Positions 1,039-64,000 of a stretch of 64,000 nt of DNA are shown one piece after another. The position numbers and the translations under genes are program-made. The notes below the pieces were generated by a model. It worked only from the letters and a program-made list of their open reading frames with translations, ran no database searches and had not been told where the DNA came from. The DNA comes from Acidimicrobiia bacterium (GTDB lineage: Bacteria > Actinomycetota > Acidimicrobiia > UBA2766): positions 700 to 64,699 of the forward strand of contig JAIBAC010000002.1 in the NCBI GenBank assembly GCA_019695375.1, in the 5' to 3' direction. The first letter of the stretch is position 1; each line of letters begins with the position of its first letter.

Positions 1039-1141
1039 TCTCGGCGCGCTCGTGGACACCGAAGCGCGTCTCGGCGCGCACGTGGCACCGTGTTGCCATC
1101 TGCGCGCCGAGACCGGTCGGGGCGTCCGTCAGCGCGCCGAG
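1039..1141. repeat. Copy A of a ~103-bp nested-palindrome repeat: TCTCGGCGCG(C) x2, loop, GCGCGCCGAGA x2
   Basis: Near-identical copy at 1680..1782. Inner stem TCTCGGCGCGC/GCGCGCCGAGA with loop ACGTGGCACCGTGTTGCC. Confidence 0.7.
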
Positions 1142-1171
1142 AACACCAGCGCAAGCGGGCAATATGGGGAC

Positions 1172-1636
1172 ATGGCGATCTCGAAGCAGGCGGTTCAGGC
1201 GTTCACGGGGGACTACCAGTCGGTGTTCGGGGCGGTGTGTGCCGCGCTGCAGGCCGAGAGAATGCAGATCTTGTCGGCCGACCCCGCCACGGGGGTGATC
1301 AACGCGTCGGGGTCGATGTCGTGGATCTCCTGGGGCGAGAACATCGTGATCGGCGTCGGTGCCGACCCGGCGGGCACGGTGTCGGTGAGCCTGCGGTCGA
1401 AGTTGAAGTTCGGGCTCGTGGACTGGGGTAAGAACCAGCAGAACATCAACAGGCTGTTCGGCCGCATCGGTGCCTTCGTCCAGAACCCGGCCATGATCCA
1501 GGCGCAGGCAGCCCAAGCCGGTGCGTGGCATCCCGACCCGCACGGCCGCCACGAGCTCCGCTACTGGGACGGCACCGTCTGGACCGACCACGTCAGCGAC
1601 GACGGCCAGGTGTCGACGGACCCGGTAGGTGCCTGA
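1172..1636 (+). CDS. Hypothetical protein with C-terminal DUF2510-like motif (WHPDPHGRHELRYWDGTVWTDHV)
   Basis: ORF-track frame 1052..1636. First ATG is at 1172 (MAISKQAVQ...). The C-terminus matches the actinobacterial DUF2510 signature. Flanked by repeat copies A and B. Confidence 0.55.
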   Translation: MAISKQAVQAFTGDYQSVFGAVCAALQAERMQILSADPATGVINASGSMSWISWGENIVIGVGADPAGTVSVSLRSKLKFGLVDWGKNQQNINRLFGRIGAFVQNPAMIQAQAAQAGAWHPDPHGRHELRYWDGTVWTDHVSDDGQVSTDPVGA

Positions 1637-2732: not shown

Positions 2733-5134
2733 GACTCGATCCGCTCGACCGCGGAGCCGTTGGGGCCGTTGGACACCTCGAAACGCAGCGGCACGCGCTC
2801 GGCCAGGTCGCTGACGTGGGTCACGAGGCCGACCATGCGTCCGCCGGCACCGAGCTCCTCGATCGCAGCGGCGACGACGTCGAGGGTGTCGGCGTCGAGG
2901 GTGCCGAAGCCCTCGTCGAGGAAGAGCGACTCGAGGCGGGCCGCCCCGCGCGTAGCCATCGACGCGATGTGCTCACCGAGGGCGAGCGCCAGCGCGAGCG
3001 ACGCCAGGAACGTCTCGCCTCCCGACAACGTGCGCGCCGAGCGCGGCTGGTCGGCGTTGCGGTGGTCGATGACGTCGAACCCGCTCGCCTTGTCGTCGAG
3101 GGCGAGCGAGTACGCACCACCGGAGAGCTCCTCGAGGATCTCGCTCGCCCCGATCACGAGCTGCTCCTGGGCCTCGCGCTGCAGCCACGTCTGGAAGCCG
3201 TCGGTCTTGAGGTGGCGCCCGAGCGTGTCGGCGACCTTCCTCGCCGCCTCGAGGCCTGCCATCTCGGTGCGCAGCGAGCGCGCCTGCGCCAGGTTCGTCT
3301 CCGCGGTCGCATGCGCGATGCGGGCCTGCTCGGCGGCGCGGGGCACTCCGGCGGTGAGCCCGGCGACGTCGTCGACCTCGATGCCTATTTCTGCGGCTGC
3401 CGCGCAGAGCTCAGTGACGACCGCTGCCGCCGTCGACTCGGCCTTGGCGACGGCGGCCTCTGCACCGGCGAGCGCGTCTCTCTGCGCGGGCACGAGGTCA
3501 GCGGCCCAGCGCGCAAGTGCGGCCCAGTCGTCGCGCAGGTCCTCTTGGCCGGGCTCGGGCGGCGTCCAGGCGGCGACCCGGTCGCGGCCGGCGAGGAAGC
3601 GGCCGCGGGCGTCCTTGTCCGCCTTCTCTGCGCCGTCGAGGGCTTGACGCGCCTTGGCGTGGTCAGCGCGTGCGGTGTCGAACGTGGACGTAGCCGACCG
3701 CACCGTCTCTTCGAGCTCGGTCCGCCGCCTCTGCTGCTGGGCGCATTCGTCGGCGGTGGGAGCTTCGGCGAGCTCGGCGGCCAGCTCGGCCTCCTGCTCG
3801 TGCAGGCGCTGGAGCTGGCCGGCGGCATCACGGTGGTCGCGGGCGGCGGCGCTCGCGGTTGCCCGTGCCGCGTCGGCCTGGGCCTCGGCGTCCTGGAGCG
3901 CTGCCTGCGCGGCGGGCACCTCGGCCGGTGTGTCCAGGGACGGCACGGTGGTGACGGTCTGGGCGCAGACGGGGCAGGGCTCGCCGGGAGCGAGGGTCTC
4001 GGCGAGCGTGTGGGCGAGATGGCTGTCCTGCACGCTGCGCAGGTGGCGCCGCGCAACCTCGACCTGCTCGTCTGCCGCCTTTGCGGCAGTCGTCGCGTCG
4101 TCCTCGGCCGCAGCGAGTGGGGTCAGGGATTCCCCGAGGTCGTGGATCTGGGCCGCGAGCTTCGCGCGGCGCTCGTGCGCGGCTCTCACGCGGCCGAGCA
4201 CCCCCGCATCGGGGAGCTCGTCGACGGCGGCGGTCGCCTCGCGCAACGTGTCCGCAGCCGCAGCCTCGCGGGCTTCGGCCTCGGCGACGGCACGCCGCGC
4301 CACCGCGACGGCCTCGGCGATGTCGCCGATGCCGTCTGGCACCTGGACGGCACCGAGCACCGCGATCGCGTCGCTTGCAGTCGCGGCGTCATCGCGCCCG
4401 CGCCGCACGCTCTCCTGGAGTGCCTGCAACTGCGGTTCGGCTGTGCGCAGGCGCGCCTCGAGCGCCTCGGTCTCCCGGCAGCGCTGCGCCGCACCGGCCA
4501 CCAGCTCCTCCGATGCCGCGCCGATCTGCTCGAGCTTGCCGTCGAGAACCTTCACCTCGGTCGCGAGCGACGCTGCACGCTCGCGCGCTCGTTTGCCCAT
4601 CTGCTCGTACACCCCGAGGTCGAGGAGGCGCATGAGCAGGGCCTGACGGTCCTTGGGCTTGTCGAGCAGGAACTGCGCGAACTCGCCCTGGGGCAGCACC
4701 ACGCAGCGGGTGAAGTGCTCGAAGCCGAGTCCGAGCAGCCCCTCGACGGCTTTGGTCACCTCGTCGGCGGTTCCGGCGAGCACCTCGGGATCGCCGCCGC
4801 TGTGGACGCGCTCGAGGCGGGCCTCCTTGGTCGTGGCCCCCTTGCCCTTGGTGCGCCGCACGACCCGCGTGGCGACGTAGTCGTCACCACCGACGGAGAA
4901 CTCGAGACTGACGACCGCCTCGTTGCGGCTCTGGCTCACGACCGGGGCGACGGCACGCAGGTCGTCGTAGCGCGGCACCGCCCCGTAGAGGGCGAAGACG
5001 ATCGCGTCGATCAGGCTCGACTTACCCGCACCCGTGGGGCCGCAGAACGCGAACAGGTCGGCGCCGTCGAAGTCGACGACGGTGCGCCCGCGGAACGAGG
5101 TGAAGCCCTCGAGCTCAAGACGCCGCGGGCGCAT
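2729..5134 (-). CDS. sbcC: SbcC/Rad50 family ATPase (DNA double-strand break repair)
   Basis: Starts MRPRRLELEGFTSFRGRTVVDFDGADLFAFCGPTGAGKSS (Walker A). Zinc hook CPVC is present, with long coiled-coil Ala/Glu-rich regions. RBS GGAGGA lies upstream of ATG 5134. Overlaps the sbcD stop by 20 nt. Confidence 0.85.
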   Translation of the reverse strand: MRPRRLELEGFTSFRGRTVVDFDGADLFAFCGPTGAGKSSLIDAIVFALYGAVPRYDDLRAVAPVVSQSRNEAVVSLEFSVGGDDYVATRVVRRTKGKGATTKEARLERVHSGGDPEVLAGTADEVTKAVEGLLGLGFEHFTRCVVLPQGEFAQFLLDKPKDRQALLMRLLDLGVYEQMGKRARERAASLATEVKVLDGKLEQIGAASEELVAGAAQRCRETEALEARLRTAEPQLQALQESVRRGRDDAATASDAIAVLGAVQVPDGIGDIAEAVAVARRAVAEAEAREAAAADTLREATAAVDELPDAGVLGRVRAAHERRAKLAAQIHDLGESLTPLAAAEDDATTAAKAADEQVEVARRHLRSVQDSHLAHTLAETLAPGEPCPVCAQTVTTVPSLDTPAEVPAAQAALQDAEAQADAARATASAAARDHRDAAGQLQRLHEQEAELAAELAEAPTADECAQQQRRRTELEETVRSATSTFDTARADHAKARQALDGAEKADKDARGRFLAGRDRVAAWTPPEPGQEDLRDDWAALARWAADLVPAQRDALAGAEAAVAKAESTAAAVVTELCAAAAEIGIEVDDVAGLTAGVPRAAEQARIAHATAETNLAQARSLRTEMAGLEAARKVADTLGRHLKTDGFQTWLQREAQEQLVIGASEILEELSGGAYSLALDDKASGFDVIDHRNADQPRSARTLSGGETFLASLALALALGEHIASMATRGAARLESLFLDEGFGTLDADTLDVVAAAIEELGAGGRMVGLVTHVSDLAERVPLRFEVSNGPNGSAVERIES

Positions 5135-6272
5135 CGGCCTCCTCCATGAGCTCGTCGAAGAGGTCGAGGACCTGCGGGTCGGACGCCGCCCTCTCCTCCA
5201 AGTAGGCGGCGAAGAGCTCCCGCGGGGACTTGCCCACCCGCGACTCCACCGTCTTCGACTCGGGCCGCTGCGGGTCGTCGACCATGACGTCGACAGCCTC
5301 GGAAAAGATGTCGCGCACCTCGTCGGCGAGGCCGACCCGCGGCGCCTCCTTGATGCGGATGCGGAGGTAGGCGTCGCCGGTCGTCCCGGCGAGGGACTCG
5401 AGCTCGGCCATCGTGGCGCGGATGGTGCGCAGGGGCCGGCCGCTGCGCAGCGGTACTTCGCGCACCTGCGCTGGAACTCCCGGGGACGCCTCGACGACGA
5501 GGACCGATTTGGCGTCCTCCTTCTCGCCGAAGTCGAGCTGCAGCGGAGAGCCGCAGTAACGGACCGGGCATGCCGCCGGCAGGGACTGGCTGCGGTGCAG
5601 GTGGCCGAGGGCCACGTAGTGCAGTGAGCTGGGAAAGACCGTGGCTGCGACGCTGTAGTCGAAGACCGTGTGCGCGAGGCGCTCACCGCCGCCGTGGACG
5701 GCGTTGGTGATCGTCGTGTGGCCCAGCAGCACGTTGACCGATCCCGGGTCGAGGTCGGAGCAGAGCAGTGCGACGACTCGCGAGATGCGGTCGGCGTAGG
5801 TCTGGTTGTGCGCGTCGGCGTCCTTGCCGAGGAGGTCGGCGGCGTGGATCACGTGGCGTTGGGACAGGAACGGCAGCAGGGCAATGGCGAGACGCTCGCC
5901 CGACCTGGTCTCGATGTGCCGCACCCCGCCGCCGGCCGGTGCCTGGAAGCGGGTCTGGACGTGGACGCGCCCGAGCTCGAGCAGCGGTGCCACCGCTTCG
6001 AGGCGCCGCGGGTTGTCGTGGTTGCCGGAGACGACCACGACCTCGGCGCCGGTGGCGGCGAGGTCGAGGAGCGCCGCGTAGACGATCTCCTCCGCTTCGG
6101 GGCCGGGGGCCGCCGAGTCGTACAGGTCGCCGCCGACGAGGACGGCGTCGACCTCCTCGTCGCGGGCGATCGCGGCGACCTCCGCGAGCACCTCGCGGTG
6201 CTCGTCGGCGCGGGAGCGGCCCCGCAGCGTCTTACCGACGTGCCAGTCGGCCGTGTGCAGGAGCTTGATCAC
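5115..6272 (-). CDS. sbcD: SbcD/Mre11 nuclease (calcineurin-like phosphoesterase)
   Basis: MIKLLHTADWHVGKTL...GNHD motif. Start overlaps the herA stop (ATGA at 6269..6272). Confidence 0.9.
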   Translation of the reverse strand: MIKLLHTADWHVGKTLRGRSRADEHREVLAEVAAIARDEEVDAVLVGGDLYDSAAPGPEAEEIVYAALLDLAATGAEVVVVSGNHDNPRRLEAVAPLLELGRVHVQTRFQAPAGGGVRHIETRSGERLAIALLPFLSQRHVIHAADLLGKDADAHNQTYADRISRVVALLCSDLDPGSVNVLLGHTTITNAVHGGGERLAHTVFDYSVAATVFPSSLHYVALGHLHRSQSLPAACPVRYCGSPLQLDFGEKEDAKSVLVVEASPGVPAQVREVPLRSGRPLRTIRATMAELESLAGTTGDAYLRIRIKEAPRVGLADEVRDIFSEAVDVMVDDPQRPESKTVESRVGKSPRELFAAYLEERAASDPQVLDLFDELMEEADAPAAS

Positions 6273-23205: not shown

Positions 23206-24272
23206 CGAGACGTCTCTGATGCAGTGGTGTCGTCGGGCTCGCCCGGCTCACCGGGCTCCAGATCCGGATCGGCTGTTGGGGCGTCGCCTTTTACCGTCGC
23301 TGCGGTTCCGGCGACCCGGCGCCGGCGAAGCACCGCGACGGTGAGGGCGCTCACGACAGCGACGATCACGACCGCCGCGAGCACCACGATCGCGACACCG
23401 AGGACGTCGCCCCAGTCCATAGGCGGTGGAGCCTGGCGGTCCCCCTCGGGCACGGGTATCGCATCGAGGTTGCAGTCCGGGCACGGCGGCAGTGACACGG
23501 CGCGCCACGCGTCGTACTCGGCGCGCACGTCGAGGATCGGGTTCTCGCGGTTGTCACCGTTGACCTCCGACACCGCAAGCCACGGCAGCCCCGCGATGAG
23601 CGCGAGCGGGGTGTTGGACGGAGCAGCGAAAACGGGGTCCTCGGGTCGTGCTGCGACCAGGAAGGCGCTGCGCGCGGTCTGGGTGATGCCGTCCACGTTG
23701 CATCGCTTGTCCCCACCCGCCGCCGAGCCCGCCTCGAGCGCGAGCATGAGGCGATCGGTCAGGTGCAGCGGCCCACGGTCGGTGGTCTGGAACGCGTCGA
23801 ACGCGCGACCGGCCACCTCGGCGTCGCCGGCGGCGTCCACGATCACGACGGCGTTGCCTCCCGGGCCGCTGCCGTTGCGATCGCCGGACCACTCCTCCAC
23901 CTTGCTGCCCGTGAACGCACCCGAGCCGCTCGTCGTCGCGATGCCGTACTGGCGCCGTGCGCTGTCGGGCTCGAACGCGGCCCCGGTCAGAGCTGTGAGG
24001 ATCTGCACCGGTGTCCGGCCCAGCCCGACCTGCTGCACTGCGAGATCGCGTCCGCGTTCGAGGTACTCACCTTGGGCCGCGACAGCGCCGCTGCGGGGTA
24101 CGAGACCCGCCACGGCGATCAGGTCGGCGTCGACGCAGCCGGCTCCGGCGGCGCCGACGTCACCGGTGCGCGTGTCCACCGCTGCGATGGTCCACGTCGC
24201 CCCCGCGGCGGCGGCGTGCCAAAACGCGGCACCGACAGCCACGATCGTGAACAGCCGAGCCATCCTGCGCAT
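23202..24272 (-). CDS. Secreted DUF1028-like (Ntn-hydrolase-fold) protein with a C-terminal TM anchor
   Basis: Signal peptide, then TWTIAAVDTRTGDVGAAGAGC, where the N-terminal Thr after cleavage resembles the DUF1028 TFSIVA start. C-terminal hydrophobic helix. Confidence 0.45.
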   Translation of the reverse strand: MRRMARLFTIVAVGAAFWHAAAAGATWTIAAVDTRTGDVGAAGAGCVDADLIAVAGLVPRSGAVAAQGEYLERGRDLAVQQVGLGRTPVQILTALTGAAFEPDSARRQYGIATTSGSGAFTGSKVEEWSGDRNGSGPGGNAVVIVDAAGDAEVAGRAFDAFQTTDRGPLHLTDRLMLALEAGSAAGGDKRCNVDGITQTARSAFLVAARPEDPVFAAPSNTPLALIAGLPWLAVSEVNGDNRENPILDVRAEYDAWRAVSLPPCPDCNLDAIPVPEGDRQAPPPMDWGDVLGVAIVVLAAVVIVAVVSALTVAVLRRRRVAGTAATVKGDAPTADPDLEPGEPGEPDDTTASETSR

Positions 24273-42631: not shown

Positions 42632-43051
42632 TCAGCCGAGGTCGGCCAGCAGCCCGATGAGATCGGTGCGCAGGCGCGTGAGCTCGTCGCGGTGCGCCGA
42701 GGTCAGGGCCCCGAGGACTGCTTCGCCGGCGTCGGTCAGCGCGAGGCGGTGCTGGCGCGCGTCGGAGGGGTCGGCGACGCGGTGGACGAGTCCGGCAGCC
42801 TCGGTGCGTGCAACCAGCTCGCCGGCGGAATGGTGCTTGAGGAACAGCGCTGCCGCGATGTCGGAGACGTTGGGGGCGCCGGGGCCGGGATGGCCGCGGA
42901 CGGCGAGCAGGAGCTGGTGCTGCGCCGGCGTCAGGCCTTCGCGGCGGGCGGCGCTCTCGGAGAACTCGAAGAAGCCGTGCAGGAGGTGGCGGAACCGCGC
43001 GAGGTTCGCGTAATCAGCGTCGCTGAGGGCGGTGCGGTCACGCCGCGGCAT
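42632..43051 (-). CDS. MarR-family transcriptional regulator
   Basis: LTPAQHQLLLAVRG...VSDIAAALFLKHHSAGELVARTEAAGLVHRVADPSDARQHRLALT. Confidence 0.85.
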   Translation of the reverse strand: MPRRDRTALSDADYANLARFRHLLHGFFEFSESAARREGLTPAQHQLLLAVRGHPGPGAPNVSDIAAALFLKHHSAGELVARTEAAGLVHRVADPSDARQHRLALTDAGEAVLGALTSAHRDELTRLRTDLIGLLADLG

Positions 43052-44309
43052 CGGCGGCTCCGGTTTGTGGCGGTGAGGACGGGACGGTGCGGTCGCGCTG
43101 GGAGTGGATGAGCCCGAAGCGGTTCGTGATCAGGAGTGCGGTGACGGCCGCGAGCAGCGTGGTGGGCAGGAGCGGGAGACCCGCCATCCCGGCGACGACG
43201 AGGGTCGACCCCACCGGGGTCTTGGTGACCGCGACGCACGCGGCGGCCATGAAAGCCGCCATCAGGGCGGCTTGATTGGTGCTCGGCACGACGGTGTGGA
43301 TCGCGCATGCGGCTGCCGCCCCGCAGAAGAACAGGGGGATGATGAACCCGCCGCGCCATCCGGTGCAGAGCGTCACGACGCTCGCGATGAGCTTCGCCAC
43401 GAGTGCGACCAGGAGGACCTTGACTGCGAGGTTGCCGTCGATGAGCTCCTGGATCTGCTGTTCGCCGAAGGTCAGGGCGAACGGTGACCAGAGGGCGAGG
43501 AGGCCGAGGGCGAGCCCGCCGAGGACGGGCCGCAGGGTCGTCGGTACCACGCTGAGGCCGCGGCGCAGCCACGAGGCACCGAGCGCGAACGCGACCCCGA
43601 TCGCCGCCCCACCGAGGCCGGCGAGGAGGGCCCAGCCGAAGTCGACGAGCGACAGGCTGCCGGCCTCCGGGAACTCCCAGATCGGTCGGAGGCCGACGCC
43701 GGTCAGGATCGCGTGGACGCCGTAGCCGAAGAGGCTCCCTACGAGCGCGGGGACGAGCGCCTCGTAGTACTCCATCCCGCGACGATGCAGGATCTCGAGG
43801 GCGAAGAACGCGCCGCCGATGGGGGTGCCGAACAGGACCGTGAAACCGGCAGCCATTCCGGTGATCGTGAGGATGCGGAGCTCCGAGCGCGAGGCGCGGC
43901 CGCGGCGGGCGAGCCACGATCCGAGCGAGCCCGTCGTCTGCACCAGCGGTGCCTCGGGGCCCATCGCGCCGCCGGCGCTGATGCAGAGCAGTGACACCGG
44001 CAGCAGCGAGCGCAGCTCGCGCAGGTCCTCCTTGCCGCCTAGGACGTGGATGTTGTCGACGAGGAGCTCGACGTCGCCGGGGCTGCCCACGAAGCGGACC
44101 ACCAGGGCGACCACAGCACCGACGCAGGTCAGGATCACGATCTGTACGGCCCCGGAGTGGGCGCCGGGTCCCAGGATCCTGTCGAGCAGATGCATGAGCC
44201 CCACATAGCCCGCGCCGACCACGCCGCCCATCGCGCCGACCGCGCAGACCCCTACGAGGAGCCGGGGCGGGATACCGAGGACTGCTTCATGGCGATGCCG
44301 TCGCAACAC
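43038..44309 (-). CDS. Voltage-gated chloride channel (ClC) family protein
   Basis: GSPGDVE, GKEDL (GKEGP-like), GAMGPEAP, GTPIGGAFFALE ClC selectivity motifs. Confidence 0.85.
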   Translation of the reverse strand: MLRRHRHEAVLGIPPRLLVGVCAVGAMGGVVGAGYVGLMHLLDRILGPGAHSGAVQIVILTCVGAVVALVVRFVGSPGDVELLVDNIHVLGGKEDLRELRSLLPVSLLCISAGGAMGPEAPLVQTTGSLGSWLARRGRASRSELRILTITGMAAGFTVLFGTPIGGAFFALEILHRRGMEYYEALVPALVGSLFGYGVHAILTGVGLRPIWEFPEAGSLSLVDFGWALLAGLGGAAIGVAFALGASWLRRGLSVVPTTLRPVLGGLALGLLALWSPFALTFGEQQIQELIDGNLAVKVLLVALVAKLIASVVTLCTGWRGGFIIPLFFCGAAAACAIHTVVPSTNQAALMAAFMAAACVAVTKTPVGSTLVVAGMAGLPLLPTTLLAAVTALLITNRFGLIHSQRDRTVPSSPPQTGAADAAA

Positions 44310-44369
44310 AGTTATATCGTATCACGACATATATCCCTCCCCGAAAGCCGGCGAGTCGCGAGCCGGGGC

Positions 44370-44570
44370 GCGCGGGCCCCGTCGGGGCCGGGTGCGGACG
44401 TGGGGACGTGGATCGGCGTGAGAGCGCGTTCTGCGTCCCCACGTCGGGGACGGGTGCGGACGTGGGGACGTGGATCGGCGTGAGAGCGCGTTCTGCGTCC
44501 CCACGTCGGGGACGGGTGCGGACGTGGGGACGTGGATCGGCGTGAGAGCGCGTTCTGCGTCCCCACGTCG
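44370..44570. repeat. Tandem array of three identical 62-bp hairpin units, MIRU/VNTR-like
   Basis: Period 62 (units start 44390, 44452, 44514). Each unit has stem GACGTGGGGACG/CGTCCCCACGTC with a 25-nt loop. A degenerate partial unit precedes the array. Confidence 0.85.
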
Positions 44571-44586: not shown

Positions 44587-45771
44587 TCAGTCGGGCAGGG
44601 TGGCCTCGATGACACCGGGGAGGGCGTCCTCGATGGGGCGGCCCGAGCGCAGGTGGACCGGCCAGCGCTTGCGGGACTTGGCGGCGAGGCGGCGCATCAG
44701 GGTGACGGCGGCAGGGTCCTCGTCGACGGCGGACTTCACCTCGAGCCAGCCCTCGGACACCATCTCGTCGAAGATCTTGCGGCCTGTCTCAGTGCGGACG
44801 ATCGTCAGCGTCCACCCGCCGGTCTGACCGAGGCCCCCCATCGAGATGTCGGCGTGCTCGGCGGCGAAGTCAGGACACGTCGTGCAGCCGGGGCGCGTGA
44901 ACTCGTGGCACTCCGACAGCGGCACCTCGAGGTAGTCGCCCTCCACGACGCCGGGGCGGGTCCAGAGCTGGAGCTTGCCTTTGATGTTCATCTTGACGAT
45001 GTCGCTGCGGGCGAGGCCGTACTTGGGCGCGATCAGGTCCTCGAAGATGTCGTCGGTGAACGACTTCGAGCACAGCAACCCGATGGTGAGCACGAACTTC
45101 TTGCCGGACTTGCGGGCGCCGCGGGTCATCATCATCGGCGGAGACGACGTCATGCATCCCATCCCGACGAGCGCGAGCTTCTCGGCCCCGGCGTCGATCG
45201 CCTCCTGGTACGCAAGGGGGTTTGCGGAGTACGTGTACCGCGAGCCCGCTGCCCGCAGGACGTCGGCCTCGGTGGTGGCGACGCCCGGCGTGGCACGCCA
45301 TTCGTCGTCGACGTAGCTCACGAGCGCGGCGTCGATGTGTCCCTTGCGCAGGCACCAGATCAGCATCGCCGTGCAGAAGCCGCCGTCCTGGCCCTTGTCG
45401 AGCCAGTCGGGGTCGACGGTGCGCACCAACAGGACGTCCTGGTGGATGCCGATGACCTCCTTCTGGGTCGGCTTGCGCTCGCGACCGTGGAGGAACTCGT
45501 CGATCTCGGGTTCCCACGCGCGAAACCGCGGGCACGCCCGCGTGCACATCGTGCACGCCTTCTCACCGTGGACGCAGCGGTCGGCGGCACCGTCGACGCG
45601 GGCCTCCTCGGCGAGGACCGGGTGCCAGTGCTCGTCGTAGCCGAGGACGTCGTGGGGGCAGGCGACGATGCAGCCGCTGCAACCGGTGCACACGTTGGTG
45701 GCCACGACCTCGTTCTGGAGGTGGTTCCAGTGCAACAGCCAACGTGGCTTCTTCTGGACTTCGCCGGCCAC
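44587..45771 (-). CDS. Coenzyme F420 hydrogenase/dehydrogenase beta-subunit (FrhB/FpoF)-family protein with N-terminal 2x[4Fe-4S] ferredoxin domain
   Basis: CTGCSGCIVACP and CTMCTRACP cluster motifs, then an FrhB-like domain. Start uncertain (GTG about 45771 with GGGAGA RBS, or upstream). Confidence 0.65.
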   Translation of the reverse strand: MAGEVQKKPRWLLHWNHLQNEVVATNVCTGCSGCIVACPHDVLGYDEHWHPVLAEEARVDGAADRCVHGEKACTMCTRACPRFRAWEPEIDEFLHGRERKPTQKEVIGIHQDVLLVRTVDPDWLDKGQDGGFCTAMLIWCLRKGHIDAALVSYVDDEWRATPGVATTEADVLRAAGSRYTYSANPLAYQEAIDAGAEKLALVGMGCMTSSPPMMMTRGARKSGKKFVLTIGLLCSKSFTDDIFEDLIAPKYGLARSDIVKMNIKGKLQLWTRPGVVEGDYLEVPLSECHEFTRPGCTTCPDFAAEHADISMGGLGQTGGWTLTIVRTETGRKIFDEMVSEGWLEVKSAVDEDPAAVTLMRRLAAKSRKRWPVHLRSGRPIEDALPGVIEATLPD

Positions 45772-59709: not shown

Positions 59710-59746
59710 TGGCCCGCCACGTGGACAGGTGGGCAGGATCGGGTGC

Positions 59747-60205
59747 ATGCGGTTCTTCCTCCTCTGCGTCCACGTCCTGGCAGTCACGGTCTGGATCGGT
59801 GGACAGTTGACGATCGCGATGCTGATGCCGGCGCTGCGCCGCACGGGTCGCGACGAGCCGGAGGGGCGCCGGATCGTATCCGCAGCGGCGCGCCGGTTCC
59901 AGCCATTGGCCTGGGGCGCGTTCGTGCTCCTGCTCTTCAGCGGTCTCGCACTGATCATGGAGACGCCGGCAGGAGGCAGCCTCGGCAGGGCCTTCGCCGA
60001 GAAGATGGTGTTTGTCGTCGTGAGCGCGGCCGCCGCCGCCGTGCACGCCCTCGGGACCGGTCCGCGAGTGAGGCGGGCAGCCGCGGCGGGCAAACCGGCG
60101 AGCGCACGCAGGCTCGCGGTTGCCGGCGCGGTCGTGTCGGTCATCGGGCTCACGGCCGCCGTCGTCGCGATGGGCTACGGCATCTACCTGGTGACCGGCG
60201 CCTAA
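59747..60205 (+). CDS. Integral membrane hypothetical protein (four TM segments)
   Basis: MRFFLLCVHVLAVTVWIGGQLTIAMLM... hydrophobic helices. Confidence 0.45.
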   Translation: MRFFLLCVHVLAVTVWIGGQLTIAMLMPALRRTGRDEPEGRRIVSAAARRFQPLAWGAFVLLLFSGLALIMETPAGGSLGRAFAEKMVFVVVSAAAAAVHALGTGPRVRRAAAAGKPASARRLAVAGAVVSVIGLTAAVVAMGYGIYLVTGA

Positions 60206-60238: not shown

Positions 60239-61162
60239 ATGCAGGCCCCCACACCCCCGCGACCCCCGCTCTTCCCACCGCCCCCGGCTGCGGGCGACGG
60301 CCGTGAGAGCTCTGCGCCGGATGCTGTACCCAGCGGCCCGCAGGCCCTCGACGGCGGGCGGCTCGGTCCTCCCACCCCGCCGCGCCAGCCCGCGCCGCCG
60401 TCACCCGACCGCTTTGCGGCCATGGACACGAGTTGGTACGGAGCCACGAGCGAGATGCCGCGGTCTCAGGCGGCGTCGCTGCCGGCGCCACCGTCACCAA
60501 ACGCATCGGCGTCCCCGCCCGCGTCCCATGAGTCCCCATTGGTGGCGCGGTACCGGGCGTCGGCGGGGGACAAGTCCGCCACGGACAAGGCCGCGGCGGC
60601 CACGTCATCGCGGAAGCGCCCCTCACGCGGTGCCGTGGTCGCCTGGATCGCGGGGGGCACGGTGGTGGTCGTCGGGGTGATCGTGGCAGCCGTTCTGTAC
60701 CTGACGGCCGGTGGTGACAAGCTCGCGCCGGCACCGGACGAGGCCGCCACGATCCTGCCGACCCGTGTCACCGGGATGTCGGTCGAGCTCGACAAGCACC
60801 CCGGGGTCCTCGCCAACGTCCCCTACCGCCGCGACGGAGCGACCATCGTGGTCACCGACCCGAAGCAGGCGGACAACGGGGGCTACGCGGCGGCAGTCGT
60901 GCTCGACCCCGCAGCCACCCGTGGAACCGACTTCGCAGCATCGTTCGAGACGGGGCTGCGATCGGACGGCAAGGTCGGCGAGTTCTCCGACACGGTCTTC
61001 GACGCCGTGCAGCTTCGCACCGCCGAGATCAGCGGTACCTCCGACATGACGCGTGTCTGGTGGTACCAGCCCTACCGCGACGCGGTCGTCGTCGTGTACG
61101 CATCGGACGAAGCCACAGGCCGGCGCATCGTCGAGGCGCTGGTGGAGCGCAACACGACCTGA
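60239..61162 (+). CDS. Proline-rich N-terminus, single TM, extracytoplasmic domain, hypothetical
   Basis: PPRPPLFPPPPAAGD... TM VVAWIAGGTVVVVGVIVAAVLYL. Confidence 0.45.
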   Translation: MQAPTPPRPPLFPPPPAAGDGRESSAPDAVPSGPQALDGGRLGPPTPPRQPAPPSPDRFAAMDTSWYGATSEMPRSQAASLPAPPSPNASASPPASHESPLVARYRASAGDKSATDKAAAATSSRKRPSRGAVVAWIAGGTVVVVGVIVAAVLYLTAGGDKLAPAPDEAATILPTRVTGMSVELDKHPGVLANVPYRRDGATIVVTDPKQADNGGYAAAVVLDPAATRGTDFAASFETGLRSDGKVGEFSDTVFDAVQLRTAEISGTSDMTRVWWYQPYRDAVVVVYASDEATGRRIVEALVERNTT

Positions 61163-61184
61163 GTCGGGCCGCGCGGCCACCCCC

Positions 61185-61417
61185 GACGTGGGGACGTGAA
61201 ACGTCCTGTGACGCCGATCTGCGTCCCCACGTGGACGGGCGGTGCGGACGTGGGGACGTGAAAGGGCCTGTGACGCCGATCTGCGTCCCCACGTGGACGG
61301 GCGGTGCGGACGTGGGGACGTGAAAGGGCCTGTGACGCCGATCTGCGTCCCCACGTGGACGGGCGGTGCGGACGTGGGGACGTGAAACGTCCTGTGACGC
61401 ACGCTCGCGTCCCCACG
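61185..61417. repeat. Tandem array of four 62-bp hairpin units, same family as 44370..44570, with loop variants
   Basis: Units start at 61185, 61247, 61309 and 61371. Shared stem GACGTGGGGACGTG/CGTCCCCACGT. Copies 2 and 3 are identical. Copies 1 and 4 differ in the loop. Lies between convergent genes and abuts the proS stop. Confidence 0.85.
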
Positions 61418-62833
61418 TCAGTACGCGCGGGCGACGTATGCGACGAGACCGTCGTCGGGCGTGTCGGCTCCGGGTACCCCGCCGTCGGGTGACACCAGGC
61501 AGCGGACCGTGTAGCCGGCTTCGGCGATCGTCGCCTCACCCGCCTCTCCGAGGGACGACCACGCGATGCGGGTGAACCCATCGGCGCCGCCGTCGAGGAC
61601 TGCATCGGGGCCGTCCCCATCGCGGGTCTCGGCGTCGCGGCGCGCCGTCGTCTCCGCGAGCAGGCTCGCCTGCACGTCGTCGAGCAGCCGGACCACAGCG
61701 GCACCTATCCCGGAGCGGGGATGTGAGGCCTTCTCGCCGGTGTCGCGGCGCACGACCGTCACAGCAGCCTGCTCGACGTCACGTGGGCCGAGCTCGAGGC
61801 GCACGGGAACACCCTTGATCTCCCAGTCCGTCGCGCGTCGACCGAAGCCCGTGTGCGTGTCGTCGTCCAGGCGGCTGCGCACACCTGCCGCTTCGAGTTC
61901 TGCGTGGAGCTCACGAGCGTCGGCGGCGACCTCGTCGCGGATGGCGATCACCACTGCCTGCACCGGTGCGACACGAGGTGGCAGCCGCAGCCCGCGATCG
62001 TCTCCGTGGGTCATGATCAGTGACCCGACGACGCGCGTGGACACACCCCACGACGTCGTGTGGCAGTGAGCGAGTTGCCCGTCGGTGTCGCTGAAGGTGA
62101 TGTCGAAGGCACGCGCGAAGTTCTGGCCGAGGTAGTGGCTGGTGCCCATCTGCAGCGCCTTGCCGTCACGCATGAGGCCCTCGAGCGTGTAGGTGAGCTC
62201 GGCGCCTGCGAAGCGCTCGGCAGCGGTCTTGCGCCCGAGCACGGGGTTCATGGCGAGGGTGTCATGCATCAGGTCGTAGTAGACGCGATGCATCCGCAGC
62301 GTCTCCTCGACCGCCTCCTCGCGGGATGCGTGAGCGGTGTGCCCTTCCTGCCACAGGAACTCGCTCGTGCGCAGGAACAGCCGCGGGCGGAGCTCCCAGC
62401 GCACCACGTTTGCCCACTGGTTGAGCAGGAGCGGGAGGTCGCGGTGGGACTGGATCCAGCGGCTCATGCAGTCGCCGATCACTGTCTCCGACGTCGGGCG
62501 GACCGCGACCGGCTCGCCGAGCTCGGCGCCACCACCGTGGGTCACGACCGCGAGCTCGGGGCTGAACCCCTCTACGTGATCAGCCTCGCGTTCGAAGAAC
62601 GGCATCGGGATGAACAGAGGGAAGTATGCGTTCTCGTGACCGGTCTCCTTGATGCGCGAGTCGAGGTCGGCCTGGATCCGCTCCCAGATCGCGTACCCCC
62701 ATGGCCTGATCGTCATGGTGCCGCGCACAGGGCCGTTCTCAGCGAGCTCGGCCTTTGCGATCACGTCCTGGTACCAGCGAGGGAAGTCCTCGGACTGCGG
62801 TGTCAACACCGGCTGCTTGCTCATCGGAGCCAC
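61418..62833 (-). CDS. proS: Prolyl-tRNA synthetase, archaeal/eukaryotic-type (class IIa, no editing insertion)
   Basis: RPWGYAIWERIQADLDSRIKETGHENAYFPLFIP ... 471 aa with a C-terminal zinc-binding-like domain. Confidence 0.9.
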   Translation of the reverse strand: MAPMSKQPVLTPQSEDFPRWYQDVIAKAELAENGPVRGTMTIRPWGYAIWERIQADLDSRIKETGHENAYFPLFIPMPFFEREADHVEGFSPELAVVTHGGGAELGEPVAVRPTSETVIGDCMSRWIQSHRDLPLLLNQWANVVRWELRPRLFLRTSEFLWQEGHTAHASREEAVEETLRMHRVYYDLMHDTLAMNPVLGRKTAAERFAGAELTYTLEGLMRDGKALQMGTSHYLGQNFARAFDITFSDTDGQLAHCHTTSWGVSTRVVGSLIMTHGDDRGLRLPPRVAPVQAVVIAIRDEVAADARELHAELEAAGVRSRLDDDTHTGFGRRATDWEIKGVPVRLELGPRDVEQAAVTVVRRDTGEKASHPRSGIGAAVVRLLDDVQASLLAETTARRDAETRDGDGPDAVLDGGADGFTRIAWSSLGEAGEATIAEAGYTVRCLVSPDGGVPGADTPDDGLVAYVARAY

Positions 62834-62920
62834 AGTATGGCAGCCGTCCAGTCGCGCCCGGCTGCGCTGTGACGACGCTTTCCGTGAAAGCCTGGCCCTC
62901 CGCGGTGCCGATGAGAACCC

Positions 62921-63172
62921 ATGAGCACCGAACGTCGATGGCCGCGTGGCCGCAACCGGGTCGCGGCCGGAGCGCTCGTGTCGGTCTGCCTCCTGGCGGG
63001 GTGCGCCGGCACGGCGAGTCCGTCACAGCAGCCGCAGCAGCCGCAGCAGCAGCAGGAACCGCAACAGGTCGGAGGGATGCCTGGAGCGGTGCAACGTGCG
63101 GGTGAGGTCAGAGATCAGACCAACCAGCACACCGAGGACCTCGAGGACCAGATCGAGACCTACGGCAAGTGA
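62921..63172 (+). CDS. Small putative lipoprotein with poly-Gln/Pro linker
   Basis: LVSVCLLAGCAG lipobox. QQPQQPQQQQEPQQ. Confidence 0.35.
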   Translation: MSTERRWPRGRNRVAAGALVSVCLLAGCAGTASPSQQPQQPQQQQEPQQVGGMPGAVQRAGEVRDQTNQHTEDLEDQIETYGK

Positions 63173-64000
63173 CTCCGGACAGCCGCATGCGCTGGTGCTC
63201 CCCCCATCAGGGCAGCGACGAGAGCGTCGTTCATGCTCAGCGATGCGGCGATCTCCCGCGCCGCCTCGCCGAGCCGGGTCGGGATGGCGTCGGGACCGGG
63301 GGTGAACTCGACGCAGGCAAGGGTCAACACCATCCCGAGGCGGTTCTCGGTCCCGGAGTAGAGCTCCGCGGCCTCGATCAGAGCCCTCCGTGGTGAGTCG
63401 GATGTCGTGAAGGCGGTGACGAGCAGTTCCCCAGCCGGCAGGGAAGGCCGTGTGCCCCCTGCGGCGGAGTCGCGGAAGACGGCGTCGAGGTCCATCACGG
63501 GCTCGACGCCGAGCACGCCCGTGAGCATCGCGAGGCCCGGCACCGAGCGCGAGACGAGGTTCGCGGCGCCGAGTGAGATCGCGCTGTCGACGGCCTCGAG
63601 GCTCGCGGTGTACGCCTCGCGCAGCTCGAGGCGCATCGCGTGGCCCAGTGAGCGCCACCAGGCCGACAACGCCCGGTCGAACGGTGTGGTCCTCGCGGCG
63701 AGCGCCTCGCGGCTGCGCTCGAGGCCGCGGCGCCGCCCGCGCTCGTCGCCGCGGGCAGCGGCCAGCGCTGCGTACGCCGCCCAAATCGGGCCCATCTCGT
63801 GGTTGGGCTCGTCGCGTCTCACGTCGATCGCGGCGGCGAGGGCTTCCTCCATCCGCGCCCAGCGACCACCGAGGAACGCGGCGGTCACCTCCGTGCGCAC
63901 GCAGCGGGGCACCTGGTCGAGAAGGCCGCGGCTGTCGAGCCATGCGCGCAGCTCCGTGAGCGTGTCCAGGCACTCGTCGTAGCGATCGGCGCGCTCGAGC
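63160..64000 (-). CDS. Hypothetical protein, N-terminus runs beyond the window end
   Basis: Frame with protein-like composition (…DALVAALMGGAPAHAAVRSHLP*). The competing frames are Arg-rich artefacts. Confidence 0.35.
   Translation of the reverse strand, partial: LERADRYDECLDTLTELRAWLDSRGLLDQVPRCVRTEVTAAFLGGRWARMEEALAAAIDVRRDEPNHEMGPIWAAYAALAAARGDERGRRRGLERSREALAARTTPFDRALSAWWRSLGHAMRLELREAYTASLEAVDSAISLGAANLVSRSVPGLAMLTGVLGVEPVMDLDAVFRDSAAGGTRPSLPAGELLVTAFTTSDSPRRALIEAAELYSGTENRLGMVLTLACVEFTPGPDAIPTRLGEAAREIAASLSMNDALVAALMGGAPAHAAVRSHLP

Follow-up and report, generated by a model that had tools for sequence, protein, structure and literature searches.

The DNA analysed here, hereafter the window, is a stretch of 64,000 nt from an Acidimicrobiia bacterium (GenBank assembly GCA_019695375.1, contig JAIBAC010000002.1, positions 700 to 64,699). 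Between its genes lie two arrays of short hairpins repeated with a 62-bp period, which TRF placed at 44380-44570 (3.1 copies, 99% matches) and 61185-61418 (3.8 copies, 95% matches). Array A comprises three units (44397-44569) beside a gene for an FrhB/FdhB-like F420 hydrogenase beta subunit, and array B comprises four 62-bp units (61185-61419) that run into the stop codon of proS, the gene for a prolyl-tRNA synthetase (ProRS). Taken alone, this feature of the window is an ordinary orphan repeat cluster. Comparison with other genomes suggests that both arrays are probably orphan clusters of a non-coding element resembling repetitive extragenic palindromes (REPs) and REP doublets forming hairpins (REPINs), whose likely partner is a nuclease that joins AbiEi and DUF559 domains.

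The two arrays and the genes around them

Each unit comprises, in order, G and the arm ACGTGGGGACG, an inner part of 25 nt, the arm's complement CGTCCCCACGT followed by C or G, and a G-rich linker of 15 nt; counted as the 12-bp GACGTGGGGACG, the arm is invariant. On both strands of the window, GACGTGGGGACG with at most one mismatch occurs at 14 sites, every one of them within array A or B (in shuffled sequence the mean was 2.2 at one mismatch, and 14 was reached in none of 100 shuffles). A covariance model built from 66 distinct units and run over the 64 kb with filters off matched exactly the seven units (47-59 bits; runner-up 16 bits), all seven of which score higher on the plus strand. Four 62-bp hairpin units at 61185 abutting the proS stop codon, with period and stem in common with the array at 44.4 kb, had been described in an earlier sequence-only reading, and this description is confirmed. 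Two weak covariance-model matches, at 24156-24198 and 59718-59776, proved on inspection not to be units. The second of these is a 9-bp inverted repeat whose halves (CACGTGGAC ... GTCCACGTC) stand 41 nt apart within a Septum_form gene; it resembles the arm minus GG and is probably a chance match (13 bits, E 0.3).

All seven units are written on the plus strand. Unit B1 (61185..61233) reads G-ACGTGGGGACG / tgaaacgtcctgtgacgccgatctg / CGTCCCCACGT-G and scores 56.8 bits with the covariance model. The linker between B1 and B2 (61234..61246) is G-rich, and the 15 nt between the 11-nt arm cores, GGACGGGCGGTGCGG, recur in the linkers B2/B3 (61296-61308) and B3/B4 (61358-61370). B2 (61247..61295) and B3 (61309..61357) are identical, with inner part tgaaagggcctgtgacgccgatctg and 58.7 bits each; B4 (61371..61419), whose last arm overlaps the proS stop codon, has inner part tgaaacgtcctgtgacgcacgctcg and scores 53.1 bits. 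The units of array A (44397-44445, 44459-44507 and 44521-44569) are identical to one another (inner part tggatcggcgtgagagcgcgttctg, linker CGGGGACGGGTGCGG, 57.9 bits each) and are preceded by a degenerate arm and linker at 44380-44396. Units of the window fold as hairpins on either strand (z -4.1 to -6.2 against shuffles), with DNA folds of -15.9 kcal/mol for B1 (z -5.1) and -20.1 kcal/mol for the array A unit (z -6.2).

The loops had been read as differing both between copies and between loci. Between copies they do, B2 and B3 being identical and B1 and B4 varying, but the loops of the two loci are not unrelated: GATCGGCGT lies in the 5' half of the inner part at A and its complement ACGCCGATC in the 3' half at B, and both inner parts have TG...TG by the arms and a TGTGA/TGAGA centre. 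Judged by sequence, they look like differently decayed copies of one longer palindrome.

Flanking genes were called from codon log-odds by a gene finder that had been trained on the loci and that gives the window a coding density of 93%; it replaced thresholds and 240-nt windows of G+C content at third codon positions (GC3) that had given conflicting calls. Array B is flanked by converging genes. On the minus strand, proS (61418..62824) encodes a 468-aa, archaeal/eukaryote-like short ProRS (Pfam tRNA-synt_2b and HGTP_anticodon; class II aminoacyl-tRNA synthetase) whose homologues are named proline--tRNA ligase. The protein ends ...ARAY before TGA (complement of 61418-61420), a stop codon whose last two bases also serve as the first two of the terminal arm of array B. 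The plus-strand gene that converges on it starts at 60239 or 60542 (start uncertain), ends at 61162 and encodes a Pro-rich protein with one predicted membrane helix (GC3 0.85); no Pfam family matches the 60239..61162 gene. The codon log-odds call is 60542-61162, with the stop codon (61160-61162) 22 nt ahead of unit B1. The only public contig encoding the window's exact ProRS (L075, Logan SRR14610234) is 2.3 kb long, is identical to window positions 61358-63650 and ends inside the array.

As RNA, the hairpins of array B have folding energies of -27 to -32 kcal/mol (-27 to -39 kcal/mol for units of the family overall). Four of them between converging genes would form a barrier, in either direction, to read-through transcription and to 3'-to-5' exonucleases, and a ribosome terminating on proS would need to melt the last stem, which includes the stop codon. 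Expression in E. coli is lowered, via ribosome stalling, by REPs lying within ~15 nt of a stop codon, which bears on the proS array only by analogy. A barrier effect at the proS site is plausible as a by-product, not as the nature of the family. The repeats lack coding potential, and array B itself appears to encode nothing.

At the other locus, the FrhB/FdhB-like gene (44587..45771, minus strand; Pfam FrhB_FdhB_C/N and Fer4) has its stop codon 17 nt from array A, and a gene for a CLC-type chloride channel (43038..44290, minus strand; Pfam Voltage_CLC) lies downstream of the array. An AT-rich near-palindrome in this genome of 70% G+C, acagTTATATCGTATCACGACATATATcc (44296-44330), lies between the array and the start of the CLC gene. 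It is probably an operator or promoter, and Rfam at gathering thresholds finds no riboswitch at this site.

The repeat family in other genomes

One genome per species (GTDB) was scanned for ACGTGGGGACG-N(20-32)-CGTCCCCACGT; counts in what follows are taken from the matches listed and are lower bounds. At least 74 loci carry the pattern. About 61 of those listed come from one metagenome-assembled genome (MAG), Acidimicrobiia bacterium STL-ACT9 (JAXLRM01), six loci (7 arrays) from a second MAG, Actinomycetes bacterium SOY_34_metabat_58 (hereafter SOY_34), and a few from Bacillota and Acidobacteriota. A genome-wide search of this kind had been proposed from the window alone, and it confirms that the units are an interspersed family, found chiefly in one related MAG. 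The ProRS of STL-ACT9 is 87% identical to that of the window, and the next named matches (Egibacteraceae, Nitriliruptorales and Euzebya) reach 63-72%; by this sequence measure STL-ACT9 is a close relative of the window organism. The window does not belong to that MAG: the two align only in the repeats and in one gene (~68% identity). A metagenome scan with the window-specific pattern ACGCCGATCNNCGTCCCCACGT gave five matches, none of them a hairpin unit and all therefore put down to chance. No match to the unit was found in 2.9 million viral contigs, none to the array among 72,556 plasmids (blastn), and none to the whole window in Rfam 15 at gathering thresholds.

STL-ACT9 carries at least 64 arrays with at least 164 units, essentially all intergenic. 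Among the matches listed, eight arrays have a single unit, 34 have two, 12 have three, five have four and two have five, and there is one array each of six, seven and nine units. Doublets are thus the commonest form (34 of the 64 listed). A doublet folds as one long hairpin with the linker as its loop (-63 to -82 kcal/mol), as in a REPIN; its two units are direct copies of a palindrome, not inverted REPs. Within one array all units share their orientation. Over all listed loci, 59 of 115 linkers measure 15 nt and another 25 measure 25-26 nt, giving periods of 62 and 72/73 bp, and linkers are G/T-rich when oriented by the inner part. The bases flanking the arms (G at position -1 in 62 of 63, C at +1 in 56 of 63) both merely extend the stem. 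Oriented in the same way, STL-ACT9 arrays precede G-rich tandem tracts such as (CGGGGGT)n and (GGTCTGG)n, and some follow (ACCCCG)n (examples at L014 5100-5140, L062 5773-5810, L070 5563-5600, L073 3565-3600 and L004 4583-4622). The 15-nt linker looks like a fragment of such a tract, and the tracts may be insertion targets, products of slippage or formers of G-quadruplexes.

The sequence-only reading had seen conserved arms around a variable middle. This layout holds for the interspersed family, but the supposed loop is a segment of fixed length (25 nt in 182 of the 198 units listed) that is palindromic in STL-ACT9 and contains covarying pairs. There, the unit becomes a ~22-bp stem with a 5-nt loop (TGTGG/TGTGA). 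In an alignment of 66 units, 85.9% of the cells pair, and sliding the partner columns lowers pairing to 35-55%. Eight inner pairs change on both sides in 60 cells, compared with 35 +/- 9 in shuffled alignments, and one of 500 shuffles reaches 60. Paired inner positions covary across lineages, and the inner helices differ by lineage (GGTGGGT/ACCCGTT, GATCGCG/CGCGTTGATC, CGGCG/CGCCG and GTC.CG/CG.GAC). The dominant STL-ACT9 inner sequence has five G.T pairs on one strand; the strand-asymmetry statistic is biased, units having been oriented by similarity to that very sequence. One 25-mer or its complement makes up 32 of the listed STL-ACT9 units, spread over many loci; inner types of their own characterise the window, the Logan lineages and SOY_34. 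Such uniformity within genomes and divergence between them argues that units were recently amplified or homogenised within each genome; old copies that were simply inherited would not fit this pattern.

Array flanks could be called in 65 cases among the matches listed. The flanking genes are convergent in 19, divergent in 16 and co-directional in 30, against baseline proportions of 16%, 16% and 67% for adjacent gene pairs, so that convergent pairs are enriched ~1.8-fold over the local baseline. Several of the divergently flanked arrays lie between long, high-scoring genes (for example L040, L047, L071 and L072). The median gap is 20.5 nt where an array faces the 3' end of a gene and 76 nt where it faces a gene start. 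In 12 of 74 arrays a stop codon is overlapped: nine of the genes concerned stop at the TGA with which the inner part opens, and three, like proS, end in an arm-fused TGA. How a unit is oriented does not depend on the direction of its flanking genes (8 forward and 6 reverse between plus-strand pairs, 8 and 7 between minus-strand pairs), which argues against a strand-specific RNA function. An apparent correlation of orientation with local GC skew (r=0.46), a possible sign of replication-strand bias, mostly vanished: with the arrays masked it fell to r=0.26 (p=0.04), and with one array per locus p was 0.12. No T-run follows the hairpins, the arms being followed by G/C-rich sequence, and a terminator scan of 60900-61700 on both strands gave no sites. 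A convergent, bidirectional-terminator position had been suggested for array B. The array does lie between convergent genes, but the family as a whole shows no such restriction. The family is intergenic filler, kept off promoters and ribosome-binding sites and tolerated up to stop codons, and not a dedicated terminator.

The genes flanking the arrays include neither cas nor transposase genes. All-vs-all blastp and Pfam searches for multi-copy or IS (insertion sequence)-like genes near the arrays found only housekeeping paralogues (thiolases, AAA+ proteins, ABC components), and no direct (target-site) duplications flank the arrays. At L069 of STL-ACT9, a two-unit array (4224-4342) is called inside the ORF of dnaX (DNA polymerase III tau/gamma; 3778-5502), where it may lie in the variable tau linker region or may split the gene call. 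The Bacillota and Acidobacteriota hairpins with the identical 11-nt arms ACGTGGGGACG/CGTCCCCACGT have perfectly palindromic inner parts of 28-32 nt that differ between genomes (L032, L008, L048, L052, L068 and L017). In Virgibacillus profundi (NZ_NPOA01000013, L032; features at 259-308, 2150-2923 and 2958-3007), a hairpin lies 35 nt from a Y1_Tnp gene resembling those of REP-associated tyrosine transposases (RAYTs). An identical arm motif occurs in two phyla beside two different enzyme types.

A nuclease gene bracketed by units

Of the 444 genes that the listed loci contain in full, exactly two are flanked at each end by units no more than 260 nt away, and both encode DUF559/REase_MTES_1575 proteins: one in STL-ACT9 (L043:6096-7049) and one in SOY_34 (L009:3822-4793), the latter with an additional AbiEi_4 match. 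A profile of this protein family, run against six-frame open reading frames (ORFs) of the 74 listed loci and the window, matched only these two bracketed genes. By simple counting, the chance of the two bracketed genes being the two family members is ~1 in 10^5.

Five other close orthologues of the STL-ACT9 protein from different sequencing runs (P0002-P0006), 61-79% identical to one another, have arms on both flanks in every case: CGTCCCCACGT lies upstream, ~75-115 nt from the ATG, and ACGTGGGGACG stands at the stop codon or shortly past it. Their short-read contigs end inside units, as expected of multi-copy repeats. The inner parts of these units resemble those of the window (...ACGCCAATCCA, ...ACACCGATCCA and ...CGTTGATCTG compared with ...ACGCCGATCTG). 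The gene of P0085 (JGI sample 3300048838), the closest relative of the SOY_34 protein at 43% identity, lies between the two copies of a perfect 19-bp inverted repeat, CTGGGGACCTGCGTCAACC / GGTTGACGCAGGTCCCCAG, which form the outer arms of two hairpin units, partly decayed and with a TGTGA loop; the arms differ from the STL-ACT9 type. In Tsukamurella tyrosinosolvens NCTC13231, WP_068740572 (annotated as a DUF559 domain-containing protein) is 28% identical to P0004, and its gene is bracketed by 41-nt hairpins, TGCGGTGGA-N23-TCCACCGCA, placed 62 nt upstream and 22 nt downstream. Orphan copies of this hairpin occur on other records of the same assembly, between a convergent and between a divergent gene pair. 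Beyond Tsukamurella, a tblastn search of plasmids with the nuclease at relaxed E-values gave only single-domain matches with other architectures.

The neighbourhoods of the gene vary, with Liv ABC genes in STL-ACT9, rarA/mgsA in SOY_34, acyl-CoA dehydrogenases at L095 and lysE in Tsukamurella. Among orthologues they are partly conserved, the DUF559 gene standing beside Peripla_BP_6 at L043, L081 and L083. Six orthologues (L043 6030-6098, and L081, L084, L098, L099 and L101) share a leader of the form TGTCACAG...GATGGGGAC...CTTCCCC-N7-CTTCCCCA...CAGGGGAA-ATG, with GATGG(G/A)GAC as the middle motif. In it, two anti-Shine-Dalgarno-like repeats face a ribosome-binding site of sequence GGGGA, and its motifs resemble the arm core TGGGGAC/GTCCCCA. 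The Shine-Dalgarno/anti-Shine-Dalgarno layout suggests tight control of expression. Compared with the orthologues, the annotated start of the STL-ACT9 protein (P0001) is 28 codons too late.

The ~180 N-terminal residues of the protein match AbiEi models. In an AlphaFold model (pLDDT 92), the N-terminal ~190 residues superpose on AbiEi 6Y8Q (Foldseek E 5e-7), and the C-terminal ~95 residues superpose on the catalytic domain of the homing endonuclease I-Bth0305I (3R3P, TM 0.75), on DUF559 3HRL and on Vsr 1VSR. D234, E245-x-D247-G248, H251 and D260 (P0004 numbering) are invariant in 18 sequences, leaving the D...ExDG..H...D site intact. As modelled, the protein is an AbiEi-type winged-helix module fused to a DUF559 nuclease of the Vsr / I-Bth0305I-like PD-(D/E)XK kind. 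It shares its N-terminus with AbiEi, but here that module is fused into one polypeptide with a nuclease and its gene is flanked by hairpin repeats present elsewhere in the genome. It shares its catalytic domain with I-Bth0305I, but the gene is not inside an intron or intein. An AbiE type IV toxin-antitoxin system was considered and rejected: the AbiEi-like N-terminus is present, but no AbiEii toxin gene adjoins the nuclease gene in any context read, and the C-terminus is the DUF559 nuclease.

The candidate partnership and its alternatives

Dispersed palindromes, doublets that fold as long hairpins, genome-specific master sequences and one flanked, partly syntenic single-copy gene together point to a REPIN-RAYT-like system. 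Units would spread within a genome to tolerated intergenic sites, and the arrays would then lengthen or shorten locally via slippage or unequal exchange. The arms would be recognised by the single-copy AbiEi-DUF559 protein, as the association of gene and repeat suggests and in parallel with REP-flanked RAYT genes; AbiEi binds inverted repeats at its own promoter. On this reading, the protein would bind or cut the arms, would drive the spread of units rather than settle among them, and would be encoded by the window's own genome. Unit mobility and any effect on termination are likewise presumed.

The REP/REPIN-RAYT systems of E. coli and Pseudomonas likewise have short extragenic palindromes in tens to hundreds of copies, doublets that form one long hairpin, uniformity within and divergence between genomes, and one single-copy, repeat-flanked gene that is apparently inherited vertically. 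The gene found here differs, encoding an AbiEi-type helix-turn-helix fused to a DUF559 PD-(D/E)XK nuclease and not a Y1 HUH transposase. The repeats differ too, with direct tandem arrays of up to nine units, a fixed period of 62 (or 72/73) bp, a G-rich linker, no GTAG-type 5' motif and an 11-12-bp arm that is invariant across distantly related genomes. The bacterial interspersed mosaic elements (BIMEs) of enterobacteria are also intergenic clusters of REP-type hairpins with defined linkers, and they affect mRNA 3' ends and, near stop codons, translation. BIMEs alternate two opposed REP types with linker motifs and sites for integration host factor, gyrase and Pol I, whereas here a single unit type is repeated head to tail. 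Mycobacterial interspersed repetitive units (MIRUs), a variable-number tandem repeat (VNTR) type, resemble the arrays as actinobacterial intergenic tandem units of 40-100 bp that often overlap an upstream stop codon and probably vary in copy number. Unlike these arrays, MIRUs lack both a palindromic hairpin form and conserved inverted arms, and their hallmark is small ORFs coupled to flanking genes. With miniature inverted-repeat transposable elements (Correia/NEMIS of Neisseria) the units share terminal inverted repeats, intergenic dispersal, hairpins in transcripts and the capacity to supply stop codons or signals; they differ in lacking a target-site duplication, in that no related IS with a known transposase was found, in smaller size (47-62 bp) and in tandem arrangement. 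A second, unrelated palindromic family is present in the window as two copies of a ~107-nt unit (1036-1142 and 1678-1784), 642 bp apart and 89% identical, with nested hairpins and arms GTCTCGGCGCGC / GCGCGCCGAGAC; they bracket a small ORF (1052-1636, plus strand) with a DUF2510 domain.

Several observations weigh against a partnership of the hairpins with the nuclease. The window has no DUF559 homologue and only two arrays. Four distant homologues (P0007, P0009, P0011 and P0019) are without clear flanking hairpins, the first three in the context polA - malic enzyme - gene - Liv ABC transporter and P0019 with only 10-11-bp inverted matches. Identity between the proteins of STL-ACT9 and SOY_34 is only ~31%, but the arms flanking their genes are identical, which is not what tight co-evolution of protein and site predicts. 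Bracketing could also arise by insertion of the nuclease gene into pre-existing repeats. In Bacillota, hairpins with the same 11-nt arm occur, that of V. profundi close to a Y1_Tnp gene, and the matches listed include none from two STL-ACT9 contigs, so that a RAYT or other enzyme may lie elsewhere in that genome. The last two points, together with the REP/REPIN-like architecture, favour a RAYT (a Y1 HUH transposase) elsewhere in the genome as the enzyme that mobilises the repeats, with the DUF559 gene a mere neighbour or secondary invader; REPIN-RAYT systems are described in published abstracts as single-copy and vertically inherited. We nevertheless consider this unlikely. Neither phmmer with E. 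coli RayT nor jackhmmer with the Virgibacillus protein detected a Y1 ORF in the window or across the ~0.5 Mb of actinobacterial loci centred on repeats, the sole match being the Bacillota locus, and since RAYTs are normally flanked by their own REPs, such a gene should have shown among the repeat-bearing loci. Only DUF559 genes are bracketed by units in the listed loci, and there is no conserved GTAG-type 5' tetranucleotide, the flanks being just G and C.

The repeats might instead be passive, spread only by slippage, gene conversion and recombination, and the AbiEi-DUF559 gene a selfish, homing-endonuclease-like settler or parasite of them. The resemblance of the nuclease domain to I-Bth0305I, the presence of the gene between units in several unrelated neighbourhoods and the identical arms of proteins only 31% identical all fit this account, and REPs are known targets of IS elements (IS1397, ISKpn1 and members of the IS110 family). 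An active homing gene would be expected at many sites, however, and there is one gene copy per ~0.5 Mb with 64 listed potential target arrays. The flanking units are complete and not split half-sites, the neighbourhood is partly conserved among orthologues, and the arms change where the protein changes (L095, Tsukamurella), suggesting that the gene travels with its own repeat type; we rate a homing origin as improbable. There is still less to be said for host regulatory elements selected across the family, whether bidirectional terminators or mRNA-stabilising 3' hairpins, an explanation that we regard as very improbable. Both window arrays start 0-22 nt from a stop codon, in keeping with the family's median gap, and the stability of the RNA hairpins and the excess of convergent pairs point the same way. 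Against this, the 16 of 65 listed arrays between divergent genes, in promoter regions, are no fewer than the 16% baseline, T-runs and terminator sites were not found, and orientation is random with respect to transcription. Nor does a terminator need an invariant 12-bp arm across genomes with MgsA orthologues no more than ~61% identical (an upper bound from a paralogue cluster), a fixed 25-nt inner length or up to nine tandem copies. Finally, a degenerate or unusual CRISPR array, or another array of small-RNA genes, would account for the 62-bp period and for a layout in which a conserved stretch is followed by a variable one of similar length. The likeness to CRISPR had already been called superficial, rightly so: the spacers are identical within array A, nearly so within B, and recur at dozens of STL-ACT9 loci, which refutes a CRISPR reading. 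The conserved parts are inverted arms of one hairpin and not a direct repeat, no cas gene is found among the flanking genes (ProRS, unknown membrane protein, FrhB-like protein and CLC channel; flanking genes only, not every window protein), and the Rfam and viral-contig searches gave nothing, so that this explanation has virtually no probability left.

Orphan clusters of a REP/REPIN-like element with an AbiEi-DUF559 partner therefore remain the reading that we favour. To our knowledge, only RAYTs have so far been tied to REP-like repeats, and we know of nothing comparable described for high-G+C Actinomycetota. Full-text literature searches (for the arm motif, for DUF559/MTES_1575/AbiEi/Vsr-like proteins with repeats, and for REPs in Actinobacteria) returned nothing on the family or the association. 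What our results suggest as new is a link, at the level of the family, between REP/REPIN-like repeats and a candidate partner enzyme of a different class. More tentatively, and with the balance somewhat against it, the hairpins and the AbiEi-DUF559 protein may constitute a previously unrecognised repeat-plus-enzyme system in Actinomycetota, analogous in function to REPIN-RAYT but using a PD-(D/E)XK nuclease that its AbiEi winged-helix module guides, in which the protein would recognise the arms, as duplex inverted repeats or extruded hairpins, nick them, and seed the duplication, dispersal or maintenance of units.

Few non-coding features of bacterial genomes are as common as REP-like repeats. 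The units described here overlap the stop codons of essential genes and systematically break short-read assemblies, the contig with the window's proS and the ~1-kb contigs of nuclease orthologues all ending inside units; they are likely to serve as VNTR-type markers of variable copy number. If the association is functional, a second, unrelated type of enzyme would be partnered with dispersed palindromes, and AbiEi-DUF559 proteins, now annotated as very-short-patch-repair endonuclease or antitoxin domain protein, would gain a testable role, open to experiment in the cultivable T. tyrosinosolvens NCTC13231. If the wider system is real, it would give the large DUF559 / AbiEi-domain family its first function and would represent a new class of domesticated replicator in bacterial genomes.

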